Positions 1 through 6,125 of a stretch of 6,125 nt of DNA are shown here, in pieces (the stretch's first letter is position 1; every line of letters begins with the position of its first letter). The position numbers were made by a program, and so were the translations under genes. Under the pieces are notes generated by a model. That model worked only from the letters and a program-made list of their open reading frames with translations. It had not been told where the DNA came from and ran no database searches. Source of the stretch: a virus (Duplodnaviria; Heunggongvirae; Uroviricota; Caudoviricetes). The stretch is from IMG/VR virus record IMGVR_UViG_2734482594_000015; one strand, given 5' to 3'.

Positions 1-77
1 CTTTCTGGTGTGAGAACCTTAAGGAAACAACATGTTGGGTGGAGCGGACAATCCAAATGGCGAATTACCGTCTTATA

Positions 78-404
78 TCACTGGCGCTGACACTTCATCA
101 CCTCCGGACGTAAATCACCATCCTTTGGTGCATTCAGAAACGCGTTCAGTGTCCCCGGTGCATCAGTCGGTGCCACATCAATATCCCCGACACGGGTTGG
201 CTGCCAGCCGTTACAGTGAAGCGCAACCTCGTAATACCCCGGCTCAGCCTCAATCACATAAGCACCGTTATTGTCCGTCACGCAAGTGGCAACAACGTGT
301 GCCACAACGGTCGGACTGGTTCTTCTGGCCCGCAGTTCAATCGCACAATTTACGACAGGTTTACCCGCCCCATCTTTCAGTACACCTGAAATCTTTACTG
401 CCAT
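78..404 (-). CDS. stf: Side tail fibre (Stf-like) N-terminal domain fragment, truncated after about 108 aa
   Basis: Minus-strand ORF with ATG at 404-402 and TGA at 80-78. The product MAVKISGVLKDGAGKPVVNCAIELRARRTSPTVV...PGTLNAFLNAPKDGDLRPEV resembles the N-terminus of lambda Stf as I recall it (MAVKISGVLKDGTGKPVQNCTIQLKARR...PGTLNDFL...DDARPEV). It sits 63 nt downstream of lom, matching the lambda lom-stf spacing. The ORF track's longer start at 446 adds MTARWFRRAFCGVN, which has no counterpart in Stf and would overlap the hairpin at 421-440. Full-length Stf proteins are several hundred aa, so this is a fragment. Confidence 0.55.
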   Translation of the reverse strand: MAVKISGVLKDGAGKPVVNCAIELRARRTSPTVVAHVVATCVTDNNGAYVIEAEPGYYEVALHCNGWQPTRVGDIDVAPTDAPGTLNAFLNAPKDGDLRPEVMKCQRQ

Positions 405-415
405 ATTCACCCCAC

Positions 416-440
416 AAAAAGCCCGCCTGAACCAGCGGGC
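416..440 (-). terminator. Candidate intrinsic terminator downstream of lom
   Basis: On the minus strand: GCCCGC, loop TGGTTCAG, GCGGGC (6-bp GC-rich stem, plus-strand 421-440) followed directly by TTTTT (plus-strand 416-420). It lies between the lom stop and the stf-like start. Confidence 0.4.
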
Positions 441-467
441 AGTCATAACACTGTGTTACCTGGCTAA

Positions 468-1514
468 TCAGAACTTATAACCGACACCCACGATGAAACC
501 GTCAGTGCGCCAGTCACCACTGCCGGAACCTTCATAAGCAAGGTCAATGGCCACGGATTCGGTCGGGTTAAACTGCACGCCAGCCCCCCACGCCAGAGAC
601 GTGTTGCTGTGGCGACCGTCATCACTTCCGGTCAGCACATCGTGCGTTTTCCCCTTGTTGTCAGTTACGCGGAGATAATCCCCGGAGAAAGTCGACACAC
701 GGCTGTAAGCCACACCCGCCATCGCATACGCGCTGAACCANNNNNNNNNNNNNNNNNNNNNNNNNNNNNNNNNNNNNNNNNNNNNNNNNNNNNNNNNNNN
801 NNNNNNNNNNNNNNNNNNNNNNNNNNNNNNNNNNNNNNNNNNNNNNNNNNNNNNNNNNNNNNNNNNNNNNNNNNNNNNNNNNNNNNNNNNNNNNNNNNNN
901 NNNNNNNNNNNNNNNNNNNNNNNNNNNNNNNNNNNNNNNNNNNNNNNNNNNNNNNNNNNNNNNNNNNNNNNNNNNNNNNNNNNNNNNNNNNNNNNNNNNN
1001 NNNNNNNNNNNNNNNNNNNNNNNNNNNNNNNNNNNNNCGCCAGAGACGTGTTGCTGTGGCGACCGTCATCACTTCCGGTCAGCACATCGTGCGTTTTCCC
1101 CTTATTGTCAGTTACGCGGATATAATCCCCGGAAAAAGTCGACACACGGCTGTAAGCCACGCCCGCCATCGCATACGCGCTGAACCATTCATTCACGCGC
1201 ACAGACGGCCCCGCCATCACGCTGAACCAGCGGTTACGCACGGAATCCTCATGCCAGCGGGTATCGCTGTAACGGGTAAGCTGGCGATTCTTGTCTCCTG
1301 CATAGCTGAATGACGTCACCAGCCCCAGCGTATCCGTAAACTCATAACGGTATTTCACGTTAATGCCCTTCAGGTCATCGCTGCCTGGCATATCAGTATG
1401 GGTCTGAAGATACCCGGCGCTCAGCGTGGACTGATGTTCAGACGCCCATGCAGGCGCACCGGATACGGCCAGACAGATGGCTGCGGACAAAATGGCTGCA
1501 CAAACTTTACGCAT
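468..1514 (-). CDS. lom: Lom outer membrane protein (Ail/Lom/OmpX/PagC family beta-barrel); reading frame interrupted by an N-run and an internal 150-bp duplication
   Basis: ATG at 1514-1512, TGA at 470-468. A GAGAGG Shine-Dalgarno lies 5 nt upstream of the ATG. The N-terminus [28 protein letters not shown] is a typical signal peptide with an AxA cleavage site, and the C-terminus ...[10 protein letters not shown] ends in Phe as outer-membrane barrels usually do. The sequence closely resembles lambda Lom as I recall it. The 348-codon ORF is inflated by 297 N plus a repeated 150-nt segment; removing 447 nt gives about 199 aa, near the ~206 aa I recall for lambda Lom. Confidence 0.85.
591..740. 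repeat. Direct repeat copy A (150 bp) abutting the left edge of the N-run inside lom
   Basis: 591-740 matches 1038-1187 with 4 mismatches in 150 nt (for example ccccttgttg vs ccccttattg, gcggagataa vs gcggatataa). Both copies encode [22 protein letters not shown](L/I)[27 protein letters not shown] in the lom frame. Confidence 0.9.
741..1037. other. Run of 297 N (assembly gap or masked sequence) inside lom
   Basis: Directly visible. Its length is a multiple of 3, and the track shows the lom frame continuing through it as X. Confidence 1.
1038..1187. repeat. Direct repeat copy B (150 bp) abutting the right edge of the N-run inside lom
   Basis: Partner of 591-740, beginning exactly at the first non-N base after the gap. 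Confidence 0.9.
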
Positions 1515-1519
1515 AATTA

Positions 1520-1525
1520 CCTCTC
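1520..1525 (-). promoter_or_regulatory. Shine-Dalgarno sequence of lom
   Basis: Minus-strand GAGAGG with a 5-nt spacer (TAATT) before the lom ATG at 1514. Confidence 0.5.
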
Positions 1526-1535
1526 GCTTTTCTGC

Positions 1536-1562
1536 AATAAAAAAGGCACCATTTCTGGTGCC
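1536..1562 (-). terminator. Candidate intrinsic terminator between J and lom
   Basis: On the minus strand: GGCACC, loop AGAAAT, GGTGCC (plus-strand 1545-1562) followed directly by TTTTTTATT (plus-strand 1536-1544). It lies in the 67-nt J-lom intergenic region; there is no T-run on the other strand. Confidence 0.45.
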
Positions 1563-1581
1563 CGTATCTGGGTTATAAAAT

Positions 1582-4500
1582 TCAGCTAATCGTGATGCCT
1601 GCAGTGGCTTTCTTCATCACCACAACCAGCAAATCGCTGATACTTGCTGTGGGATACCAGCCATTTACCAGCCATGCCGATACAGAAAACTCCAGCGTCA
1701 TGTGACCGTGACCGGCAGGCATATCAATAACACCCGTATATATCAGCGTATTATCCAGGGTCGTTCGGTTATAAATTTCAGCACCGTTTTTCTTCACTAT
1801 CAGGCGGCATGACGAATAAATATTGTTATTCTTCCGCTCATGTTTAGCACCGCGAAACGCCACCGCGGGAATAACAATTTGCCGATCAAACGGCTGATCG
1901 TCATAAACCCTGACGGTAATGGTCCCTGATGGCCACCTCTCCGGTGCCCGGGAGTCCCGTGGGAAAGGTTTGCCCACTGTTTTAACGAGATCGCCTTCAA
2001 TCTGGTTCGCGGACAATTTTCCCAGAACCCGACAGTTCTTATTAATCGTGACGTTGTTGAGCGTCCCGGAGTTCGCGTTCACGTTACCGCTGATATCGGC
2101 ATTTTTCGCCGTCAGCCGTCCGCCAGGTGTCAGGGAAAATGCCGGAGGATTACCGCCGCTGGTAATGGTCGGAGCCGTCAGGCATTTCAGGAACACGTCG
2201 TTCATGAATATCTGATCGCCCTGACCAACAAACATCGGCTTTGTGTTGCCATTCGCAGGATTAATCATCGCAATCCTGTCTGCCGCCAGCAGCACCTGAC
2301 TCTGCATTCCTGCTGGCGTATTCTCAATACCGGCACCGATACCCGCAATATAAAGGCGTCCGTCCTTCATCTGTTGCAGCTTCACAGCCCACATGCTGTT
2401 CAGGTTATTATTTGTATCAACCTGAACTTTCTGTATCTGCTGGATTGCAGCACTCTGATTTTCCAGTTTTTTATTGACGGTTTGCGTGATTTCATTGCTG
2501 ACATTCGTAATGGACGTCCTGATTTCAGTCAGGTCCGGCGCAAGCTGACCGTTATCAATCTGCGTCCACAACTCCTTGCCGAGATGCGTTTTATTGATCA
2601 ACCCTTTATAAAAATTCAGATAACCTTCTGCATCATCGCTCGCCCGACCGATGGCCTCCACAAATGCCGATTTGCCAACGGTGTTCACACTGCGAACGTA
2701 AAAATAATAATCATGGCCCGGCCTGATATTGATACTGGCGGCTATCCAGTACAGCGCCGTGCCAAGATAGCGGGCGCTGGTTTCAACCTGCCTGATATCC
2801 GCAATCCGCTTTTCCGAAAACCAGAACTCAAACTGCACCGTCGGGTCATATACAGCCAGTTTCGGGACCGCCGTTATCTGAAAATACCCCGGTATCAGTT
2901 CAATAGTGACAGGCGCTGCCGGTGCCGCAATCCGGAACGATACCGACGCCGGATCGCCCTGCTGCCCCCGGGCATTTACCGCCCGGACTGTCAGACTGTA
3001 ATTCCCCAGCGCCAGCTGCCTGAAGCGGTATGTGGTTTCCGTCGTCCTGGCTGTGCTGACCAGCCGCTCACTGCCGTCGTCCGCTGCCACGGTCAGGCGA
3101 AGCAGGAAGCTCACACCCTTCACCACCTTCGGCGTGTCCCATCGCGCCAGCACCTGATATTCCCCGCTGTCTGCGGTGACTTCGGCGGTCAGATGCTGCA
3201 CCGCTGGCGGCGTGACACCATTCACCGTGCCGCGCCGGTCACCGTCAAAGTGTGCCCCGTTATCCACGATGGCCTCTTTTTCCGGCACATGCTGCACGGC
3301 GGTGATGGCATACGTGCCGTCGTCGTTCTCACGGATACTCACGCAGCGGAACAGACGCTGGCGCAGCGTCGGCAGCTTCAGCCCCCACACGCTGTATTCT
3401 GCAACGCCGTCAGGAACCCGGCTCACTTTCACCTTCACGCCGTCGGTGACGGACTGGACCTCCACGCTGACCGGATTGCCACTTCCGTCAACCAGGCTTA
3501 TCAGCGTGGTACCGGAGGACGGCAGCGTGATTTCACGGTCGAGCGTCAGCGTCCGGGTCTGGCTGTTCACCGCCAGTACGCGACCACCGGTGCTGATACC
3601 GGCATAATCATCATCGCAGATTTCAATGACATCACCCGGTACATGGCGAAGCCCTTCTGCGCCCACGCTGAAGTCCACGGTCTGCGTTTCCAGCAGTTCC
3701 GTTTTAATCAGCCACAGCCCGGCTCGGTGTGCCTGCCCCCGGCTGGTACAGCCAAAGGCATCCATCTTCGTGACATTACGACCGTAACGGGCAATGGCCT
3801 GCGTATCCTCCACAAGCTCTGTCGCCGTCTCCCAGCCGTTATCTGGGTCAATCCAGTTCACCTCAACGGCATTATGGCGGTCCTTCAGGGCGCTGAAGCT
3901 GTAGCGGAACGGCGCGCCATCGTCCGGCATCACCACATTACTGCGGTTATAGGTCCACACCTTATCCGACGGTCGGTCCTGCACGAACGTCAGCATCTGT
4001 CCGTTCCATACCGGCATACAGCGCATCGCCGAGCAGAAATCACTGAGAACATCCCACGCCTTACGCTGTGTGGTCAGGTAAGAGTTACAGGTGATGCGCG
4101 GCTCCGTGCCGCCAAATCCGTCCGTCACTGACTGGTCGCAGTACTGGCCGATGACATACAGCGCCCATTTGTCCACATCTGCCGCACCAAGACGTTTCCC
4201 CATGCCGTAGCGCGGATGAGTGAGCATGTCCCACAGACACCAGGCCATGTTGTTGCTGTATGCTGGCTTAAGCGTTCCGTCCCAGATACCGCTGTATTGC
4301 CGCGTCTGCGGGTTATAGTTCGACGGCACCTGCAGAATGCGCCCGCGAAGATGATAATTGCGACTCACCTGCTGGTTACCGAACTGCTCTGAATCCACCT
4401 GCACGCCGACCAGCGCCGTGTTCGGGTAGCACTGTTTCACATCGATGATTTCGGTGTACGACGACCAGAGCGTTTTGTTCTGCAGCTGGTCTGTGGTGCT

Positions 4501-5061
4501 GTCCGGTGTCATCCTGCGCATCCGGATATTAAACGGGCGCGGCGGCAGGTTACCCACCACCACCGAGGCCAGATACTGCGAAGTGGTTTTGCCCTTAATG
4601 GTGATGTCTTTTTCCGTCACCCAGCCACCGTTACGCTGTATCTGAACCAGCAGGCGGACTTCCGACGGATTCCGGTCACCCTTTGAGGTGGTTTCCACCA
4701 GTGCCTGCACACCGAAGGTCAGGCGCAGACGGTCGATGTTTGCCGACGTGATGGTCCGGGTGATCGGCGTGTCATATTTCACTTCCGTACCCAGCACCGT
4801 CTCGGAGCCGGAGGATTCAAAACCCTCCGGCGGTGTCTGCTCCTGCTCACCTGCACGGAACACCACCGTAACACCGGAAAAGTTTGTCTTCCCCTCGCTG
4901 TCCAGGACCGGCGTACCGTTCAGCAGCACGCTTTTTAATCCATCCACCGGACCGTCAACCGGCCCTTCGCTGATGGCATCAATCACACTCAGCAACTGCG
5001 TGGATTTCAGGTTGTCCTTCGCTTCGCGCGGGGTATGCCCCTTACTGCTGCCTTTACCCAT
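1582..5061 (-). CDS. J: Tail tip host specificity protein J (central tail fibre), 1159 aa
   Basis: Uninterrupted 3480-nt minus-strand ORF with ATG at 5061-5059 and TGA at 1584-1582. GAGG lies just upstream of the ATG. The N-terminus [34 protein letters not shown]... and most of the first ~810 residues closely match lambda gpJ (1132 aa) as I recall it. The C-terminal ~345 residues are homologous but clearly diverged. Confidence 0.95.
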
Positions 5062-5102
5062 TCCTCACGCTCCATAAACGACAAAACCGCCCGCAGGCGG
5101 TT

Positions 5103-5804
5103 TCACATAAAACATTTTGCATCAGCGACCAANNNNNNNNNNNNNNNNNNNNNNNNNNNNNNNNNNNNNNNNNNNNNNNNNNNNNNNNNNNNNNNNNNNN
5201 NNNNNNNNNNNNNNNNNNNNNNNNNNNNNNNNNNNNNNNNNNNNNNNNNNNNNNNNNNNNNNNNNNNNNNNNNNNNNNNNNNNNNNNNNNNNNNNNNNNN
5301 NNNNNNNNNNNNNNNNNNNNNNNNNNNNNNNNNNNNNNNNNNNNNNNNNNNNNNNNNNNNNNNNNNNNNNNNNNNNNNNNNNNNNNNNNNNNNNNNNNNN
5401 NNNNNNNNNNNNNNNNNNNNNNNATTACTCGCCATAATTCCTACCCCCGGCATCCATATAGCAACCGCCATAACAGCCGCCCCCAGCACCGCCTGAAACA
5501 CACCGCCACTTTTAGCTCCCACCAGACGCGGTACTATGTGGATCACTGCACCATTTGCCAGCGGCTCATTAAGACGGGCAGACAATTCGGTTTCACCTGC
5601 ATCACGCCCGGCAATGCGCACCTGATACCAGCCGTCACTCAGTTTCTGACGAAACGCCGGGAGCTGTGTGGCCAGTGCCCGGATGGCTTCAGCCCCCGTT
5701 TTCACACGAAGGTCGATGCGGCGACCAAATCGTTGTAAATCCCCGTAAAGGCAGATGCGCGCCATGCCCGGTGACGCCAGAGGGAGTGTGTGCGTCGCTG
5801 CCAT
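5103..5804 (-). CDS. I: Tail assembly protein I; central part hidden by an N-run
   Basis: ATG at 5804-5802. The N-terminal 127 aa (MAATHTLPLASPGMARICLYGDLQRFGRRIDLRVKTGAEAIRALATQLPAFRQKLSDGWYQVRIAGRD...) resemble lambda gpI. The start overlaps the 3' end of K as in lambda. The stop at 5105-5103 is only valid if the 291-nt N-run (97 codons) preserves the true length and frame; the resulting 233 codons compare with about 223 in lambda. Confidence 0.75.
   Translation of the reverse strand: MAATHTLPLASPGMARICLYGDLQRFGRRIDLRVKTGAEAIRALATQLPAFRQKLSDGWYQVRIAGRDAGETELSARLNEPLANGAVIHIVPRLVGAKSGGVFQAVLGAAVMAVAIWMPGVGIMASNXXXXXXXXXXXXXXXXXXXXXXXXXXXXXXXXXXXXXXXXXXXXXXXXXXXXXXXXXXXXXXXXXXXXXXXXXXXXXXXXXXXXXXXXXXXXXXXXXLVADAKCFM
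5133..5423. other. Run of 291 N (assembly gap or masked sequence) inside I
   Basis: Directly visible. Its length is a multiple of 3. No duplicated flanks were detected. Confidence 1.
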
Positions 5805-6125
5805 TTGTCGGTGTACCTCTCTCGTTTGCTCAGTTGTTCAGGAATATGGTGCAGCAGCCCGCCGTCACCGCAGTAAATGGCGGCATGATTCGGCACCGAT
5901 GAACCAAAACAGCACAGCAGCACATCGCCCGGCTGTGCCTCTGTCAGTGCGACACGGTAAAAACCCGTCACCTCCATATTGTCAAGATAGAGATTCTGAC
6001 CGTTACGCCACCAGTCATCCCCGCGATGAAAATCCGGCATCTCAATCCCTGCCAGATGATAAGCATCCCGGAACAGCGTGTAACAGTCCGTCACCCCGTG
6101 CTCAAAGCGCCGCCCGGTGAGATGC
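5702..6125 (-). CDS. K: Tail tip assembly protein K, C-terminal (NlpC/P60-like) part; 5'-partial, start lies beyond the window
   Basis: The minus-strand frame is open from the window edge to TGA at 5704-5702. The translation ...HLTGRRFEHGVTDCYTLFRDAYHLAGIEMPDFHRGDDWWRNGQNLYLDN...WRHRAWRASAFTGIYNDLVAASTFV matches the C-terminal half of lambda gpK as I recall it. The M at 6094 in the ORF track is an internal GTG (Val) codon, not a start. Confidence 0.85.
   Translation of the reverse strand, partial: HLTGRRFEHGVTDCYTLFRDAYHLAGIEMPDFHRGDDWWRNGQNLYLDNMEVTGFYRVALTEAQPGDVLLCCFGSSVPNHAAIYCGDGGLLHHIPEQLSKRERYTDKWQRRTHSLWRHRAWRASAFTGIYNDLVAASTFV

Follow-up and report, generated by a model that had tools for sequence, protein, structure and literature searches.

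A side tail fibre gene joined to the left terminus of IS21 in a lambdoid prophage of probable Shigella sonnei lineage

A 108-aa open reading frame on the minus strand of the window (the whole 6,125-nt stretch of DNA analysed here) is, we hold with high confidence, an insertion-truncated pseudogene that arose when IS21 entered the side tail fibre gene (stf) of a prophage of the Shigella sonnei lineage. The reading frame spans window positions 404 to 78, with an ATG at 404 and a TGA at 80-78, and its product reads MAVKISGVLKDG...DLRPEVMKCQRQ*. A truncated Stf frame of this length, strand and place, directly after lom, had been reported in the original prediction and was found as described. The minus-strand order of genes in the window is K, I, J, lom and the truncated stf, which is the distal end of a lambdoid tail module, and the J-lom-stf position of the 108-aa frame matches the gene order of phage lambda and of two Escherichia coli prophage loci, L001 and L002. 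The features of the window are as follows:

Window 1..92, minus strand: left end of IS21, nt 1-92 of 2,130, comprising the terminal inverted repeat and leader
Window 78..92, minus strand: IS21-encoded tail of the reading frame, TGT CAG CGC CAG TGA (CQRQ-stop), read directly
Window 93..404, minus strand: native 5' part of stf, 312 nt, codons 1-104, i.e. the collar/tail-docking domain plus 10 residues
Window 411..440, minus strand: terminator-like hairpin after lom and just upstream of the stf start (stem 440-421, then a T-run)
Window 468..1514, minus strand: lom (Ail/Lom outer-membrane protein), the upstream neighbour, split by a 297-N gap
Window 5061..1582, minus strand: tail tip gene J, intact, 1,159 aa
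Minus strand: tail assembly gene I, with 291 N inside the gene
Minus strand: C40/NlpC-P60 peptidase gene, K-like, partial in the window

The stop codon of lom and the start of the 108-aa frame are separated by 64 nt that contain the hairpin, and the corresponding position after lom is annotated as 'terminator' in phages mEp460 and Ayreon. A longer, 122-aa version of the frame, starting with an ATG at 446, was dismissed because this ATG precedes the lom terminator hairpin; the same ATG is unused as a start in RefSeq-annotated intact homologues and in lambda stf.

The 108-aa product matched the profile PF08400 (phage_tail_N) with E=9.8e-37 and 126.4 bits against a cut-off of 26.6. The match covered profile positions 1-104 of 134, and the intact homologue covers positions 1-131. 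With lambda orf-401, the 5' part of stf, the product shared 52% identity over residues 1-104 in a gapless alignment (E=6e-33). Both comparisons bear out the expectation that the product would align with Stf N-termini. A phmmer comparison placed residues 1-92 of the intact homologue on the collar domain of Ur-lambda Stf (PDB 9E7M/9MGH; E=3.4e-22). Residues 1-94 of Ur-lambda Stf have been resolved by cryo-EM as a six-strand beta sheet plus a helix, and twelve copies form a collar round the gpV/gpM junction (PMC12617516). The 104 retained residues thus span the whole collar domain, with 10 residues extra. It had been proposed that the gene was reduced to its N-terminal domain by a junction at a domain boundary, the fibre sequence being read as far as ..PEV. 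The first part stands, in that the gene is cut down to the collar domain. The native fibre sequence ends with ..PEVMK (codon 104, window 93), however, and not with ..PEV, and the cut as read from the alignments falls near a structural boundary and not exactly on one, being located 10 residues past the collar domain and inside the PF08400 model. Nothing suggests that the position of the cut is more than a chance landing site of IS21. As the frame reaches a stop at codon 108 and contains neither a shaft nor a C-terminal domain, it does not encode a complete fibre, and on its sequence it is best regarded as a pseudogene of the lambda-type Stf family and not as a functional member.

Identity with the fibre gene runs to codon 104 (..RPEVMK, window 93), and IS21 begins with TGTCAGCGCCAG.. 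at window 92. The first 312 nt are 100% identical to those of the two intact 471-aa genes in L001 and L002. The alignment with these genes shows no mismatch as far as ...GAGGTGATGAAG and no relation beyond, the last shared stf nucleotides before the junction being ...CGTCCGGAGGTGATGAAG. At the cut site intact relatives read ..PEVMKRFEEMVAQ.., and the intact protein continues as ...RPEVMK-RFEEMVAQAQQ..., whereas the window reads ...RPEVMK-CQRQ*. Of the reading frame, only the four terminal codons with their stop (TGT CAG CGC CAG TGA, window 92-78) are foreign, a 15-nt stretch with which IS21 begins in two independent full copies. When window 1-640 was compared by megablast with 5,426 complete E. 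coli genomes, an intact gene of 470-471 aa was found in about 10 prophages with 97-99.6% identity, and every match ended at window 93. Past the junction, each of the three frames meets a stop within 77 nt, and beyond window 93 the DNA shows no relation to stf. Rescue of the fibre by a frameshift was dismissed, since none of the three frames is open past the junction. Two earlier claims are confirmed by these results: no single frameshift restores the fibre, the other two frames stopping within a few codons, and the end of the reading frame is a rearrangement junction, at which stf sequence switches to foreign DNA after window 93.

The foreign DNA was identified by comparison with two complete copies of IS21, L003 and L004. 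Both copies measure 2,130 bp (TGTCAG...TTGACA), are bordered by 4-bp target duplications (TATG in L003, AGAA in L004) and carry the annotation 'IS21-like element IS21 family transposase', with istA followed by istB. Window 92..1 was identical to both copies at 91 of 92 positions. Homology between the window, L003 and L004 begins exactly at TGTCAG, and the three left flanks are mutually unrelated. The matching segment starts 101 nt upstream of istA in both reference records; the window stops 9 nt short of the istA start codon. The last 100 nt of the window gave 4,033 matches in 2,698 E. coli genomes, on plasmids more than on chromosomes, and such multicopy matches on chromosomes and plasmids are the signature of a mobile element. 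IS1 had also come into consideration as the inserted element, owing to an 'IS1 family transposase' annotation and to a GGTGATG junction that resembles an IS1 end. It was dismissed because the annotated record has IS21 nested in a piece of IS1 and because conservation of the element begins at TGTCAG. Both IS21 and IS600, the second element met at this locus, are among the 12 insertion sequences catalogued in S. sonnei 53G (PMC7373316).

The same stf-IS21 junction was found in CP010829.1, the complete chromosome of S. sonnei FORC_011 (PMC5447701). Gaps aside, window 1-590 and 1333-6125 are 100% identical to this chromosome. The layout of the FORC_011 locus (L005) was established by BLAST and by reading of the junctions:

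L005 10001-10312: stf nt 1-312
L005 10313-10740: IS21 nt 1-428
L005 10741-12004: complete IS600, inverted, 1,264 bp, with a 3-bp GTT duplication, 99.8% identical to annotated IS600
L005 12005-12677: IS21 up to nt ~1098
L005 12678-13854: second IS600, lacking the first ~87 nt, right end intact
L005 13855-14525: stf from ~nt 746 to its stop, 223 codons, open frame
L005 14476-15099: DUF4376 gene, intact
L005 from 15300: sitDCBA

In FORC_011 the fibre resumes at about codon 249, 3.5 kb downstream of its 5' part and behind IS21/IS600 debris, and the junction between IS600 and stf reads CCAGTACACCTCAGCCGTCTGGCGATACCC. Absent are stf codons 105-248, which make up the Ala/Gln-rich shaft, and the 3' ~1,030 nt of IS21 (nt ~1099-2130) including istB. 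Whereas istA and istB are both present in L003 and L004, the FORC_011 copy retains only a split 5' part of istA. A continuation of the fibre immediately downstream had been named as the observation that would speak against truncation. None is found there, although in FORC_011 a remaining part of the gene is still present on the far side of the IS cluster. The suggestion that a different fibre or receptor-binding module might be fused downstream is contradicted by this chromosome, which has the same gene's own C-terminal 223 codons, unfused.

The orphan 3' part of stf, situated directly behind the right end of IS600, overlaps the start of the DUF4376 gene. It is spanned by a 228-aa open reading frame (L005 13839-14525) with a TTG start in the IS600 end, and no Pfam family was matched on the distal stf piece of FORC_011. 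Downstream of the DUF4376 gene, S. sonnei carries sitDCBA, which encodes a metal ABC transporter (L005 15300-18749), and in EIEC-like E. coli prophages the cargo consists of ipaH type III secretion effector genes, one of them frameshifted (L001 10404-12167, L002 10403-12045). Cargo positioned after the fibre and DUF4376 genes is typical of a moron slot at a prophage end.

These observations can be combined into a probable course of events. A lambdoid prophage of the S. sonnei lineage would once have carried a 471-aa fibre gene with collar, Ala/Gln-rich shaft and C-terminal domain, followed by DUF4376. IS21 would have transposed into codon 104/105 of stf, and its left terminal repeat (TGTCAGCGCCAGTGA...) would have supplied four codons and an in-frame stop, yielding ...PEVMK-CQRQ*. 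In FORC_011, IS600 then presumably entered istA of this IS21 copy with the 3-bp GTT duplication, and a second IS600 may have entered stf at ~nt 745. Finally, one deletion would have joined IS21 nt ~1098 to IS600 nt ~88 and removed the 3' half of IS21 together with stf codons 105-248. This order of insertions and deletion is the one that we infer from the layout. That the gene was hit by transposition of IS21 is suggested by the direct contact, resolved to a single base, between stf and an intact end of the element. The window breaks off within IS21, so that istA/istB, the right end and any target duplication of this insertion lie beyond it, and in FORC_011 the right end of IS21 is deleted, so that no target-site duplication is left there to prove transposition. 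The truncated product itself probably has no function.

The genome from which the window derives most likely shares the downstream layout of FORC_011. It might instead contain a simple, complete IS21 of 2.1 kb with the rest of stf directly after it and a 4-bp GAAG duplication, an arrangement that we consider unlikely. The 92 nt of IS21 in the window fit the simple and the compound form alike, the simple insertion is the necessary ancestral state, and its form is predicted by the 4-bp duplications of other IS21 copies. The two strains must be very close, however, given the complete identity of window 1-590 and 1333-6125 (gaps aside) to FORC_011, and the simple form is undocumented among the genomes searched, as the junction occurs in no complete E. 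coli genome.

The original prediction had read the end of the frame as a deletion or recombination junction at a domain boundary, possibly near the prophage end, and had named no mobile element. A deletion did affect stf codons 105-248 in FORC_011, and the cut does lie only 10 residues past the collar domain. What replaces stf at window 92 is nevertheless an exact IS21 terminus, with IS21 sequence filling window 92..1, and the deletion endpoint is elsewhere, at IS21 nt ~1098/IS600 nt ~88 outside the window. Furthermore, the 3' part of stf and DUF4376 follow on the far side of the IS cluster, so that the prophage does not end here. The IS21 left terminus accordingly takes the place of the earlier reading, which we now regard as very improbable.

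Two N-runs interrupt the window. In lom, 297 N (window 741-1037) separate two copies of one 150-nt segment (591-740 and 1038-1187). The copies differ from each other at four positions and from FORC_011 lom at three and five positions, respectively. As a result of this gap and of the duplicated flanks, a spurious 348-aa open reading frame takes the place of the 199-aa gene. All differences between the window and FORC_011 lie in lom, at 591-1332, beside this gap. The lom region has the look of a gap left in scaffolding, or of paralogous lom copies from several prophages that were collapsed into one. In gene I, a second run of 291 N (window 5133-5423) replaces 250 nt of FORC_011 and, because the two lengths are unequal, represents a gap estimate and not a like-for-like mask. 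A draft assembly with two N-runs and a mis-assembled lom could in principle also contain a prophage contig wrongly joined to an IS contig. Such an artefact is hardly credible as the source of the stf-IS21 junction, since a closed chromosome and seven draft genomes assembled independently carry the same junction and since the gaps are more than 650 nt away from it.

Least probable of all is a natural stand-alone collar protein with the tail-docking domain encoded as a separate small gene in the manner of T5: separate collar proteins do exist (T5 p132, DT57C LtfC; PMC12617516) and the 104 retained residues include the entire collar fold, but IS21 provides the DNA of the last four codons and of the stop, the nucleotides are identical to the 471-aa gene up to the junction, and in other Shigella species the cluster members continue past this point.

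The exact 108-aa product was found on eight NCBI contigs, namely the FORC_011 chromosome and seven S. sonnei draft contigs. All seven draft contigs end 41-63 nt past the start of a 22-nt motif that spans the junction and so reach 31-53 nt into IS21, as would be expected of short-read assemblies at a repeat. Clustering at 90% places the product in a group of 208 members. Three 'partial' products from S. sonnei end at the junction or shortly ahead of it, at codon 102 on at least 1,000 contigs, at codon 99 on 101 contigs and at codon 104 on 45 contigs, in all more than 1,100 contigs. The places at which these contigs break fit an IS21 insertion that would be lineage-wide. Partial products of S. 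boydii and S. flexneri continue into RFEEMV... and hence come from genes without the insertion. The junction was absent from the 5,426 complete E. coli genomes, where no record aligned with the query continuously past window 93. It was likewise absent from the phage collection, where megablast gave the lom/stf 5' region only (at most 51% of the query, in Stx/lambda-like phages), and from the species-representative genome set, in which an exact 36-nt scan (CCGGAGGTGATGAAGTGTCAGCGCCAGTGATATAAG) returned 0 matches. The truncated allele was seen in no deposited phage of the collection searched.

The prophage of FORC_011 is a remnant. Upstream of the tail genes it has, in order, a YbcO gene, the Q antiterminator, IS3-family debris and the 3' ~340 nt of the tape-measure gene, and this fragment is followed by M, L, K, I, J and lom. 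No Pfam family was matched by the 121-aa open reading frame upstream of M, and DNA homology identified it as the 3' end of the tape-measure gene. By gene calls and by comparison with the intact relative, genes for lysis, terminase, head and tail tube are missing. Without them the element cannot form virions. The proposal that the phage would depend on J alone for adsorption therefore does not apply to this remnant, which is unable to build a virion.

In the FORC_011 remnant (L005 3406-9937) the reading frames of M, L, K, I, J (1,159 aa) and lom have stayed intact, and outside lom they are 100% identical between the window and FORC_011. Going by the state of these frames, decay may have been recent. 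In the prophage of FDAARGOS_943, an IS66-family element (tnpB/tnpC; L001 1-1933) lies directly upstream of tail gene L, and homology between L001 and S. sonnei starts only at L001 2007. Even prophages with an intact fibre are hence partly degraded.

A residual activity of either fibre piece was also considered. The 108-aa frame keeps the whole collar domain and its native start, and the product, were the frame transcribed, might be built into the dodecameric collar of co-resident or superinfecting lambdoid phages as a dominant-negative cap; separately, the orphan C-terminal 223 codons might be driven by an outward-facing promoter in the IS. We regard this as a very slim chance, and clonal inheritance would account equally well for how widely the allele occurs in S. 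sonnei. A dominant-negative cap, if real, would block attachment of side fibres and alter adsorption or host range, for example that of the Stx phages of S. sonnei.

For users of sequence data, the stf-IS21 junction offers a stable, apparently lineage-wide marker at which short-read assemblies break predictably. Public records name the product 'hypothetical protein FORC11_1838' or 'prophage tail fiber N-terminal domain-containing protein', and the latter is also the annotation of the intact gene. Short 'N-terminal domain-containing' fibre proteins that end in ...CQRQ* should be read as IS21 fusion artefacts and do not constitute a new collar-only class.

The IS21-truncated stf is an ordinary feature of an already known kind. 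It shares with stf of lambda PaPa (orf-401/orf-314) the J-lom-stf position and a homologous collar domain, and in both cases the side fibre is inactivated and J is intact. In lambda PaPa a frameshift mutation in stf prevents fibre synthesis (PMC12617516), and the record still annotates a 401-aa product, orf-401. The lesion described here is, in contrast, an IS insertion at codon 104 with a deletion of the shaft, and it does not represent an allele of the lambda PaPa type, as no fibre frame continues past it. Moreover, lambda PaPa is a viable phage, whereas the S. sonnei prophage is a remnant.

Also closely related are the EIEC-like E. coli prophages with an intact 471-aa gene (WP_197940023.1 in FDAARGOS_943, WP_046880233.1 in CFSAN029787). 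They have L, K, I, J and lom upstream and DUF4376 downstream in common with the S. sonnei locus. Their genes are uninterrupted and followed by ipaH, whereas in S. sonnei IS21/IS600 disrupt the locus and sitDCBA comes after it. As a member of the IS21 family, which encodes the transposase IstA and the helper ATPase IstB, the inserted element is represented in the window by its first 92 nt (window 92..1). The FORC_011 copy is defective, being split by IS600 and lacking nt ~1099-2130. Expansion of insertion sequences, with massive pseudogenisation, is the established mode by which genomes decay in Shigella (Hawkey et al. 2020, PMC7373316). The present case is the same in kind, with a resident IS in a coding sequence, nested IS and an adjacent deletion. 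It adds one more instance, in a gene without a role in the host, and stf stands as one among several hundred IS-inactivated genes in S. sonnei.
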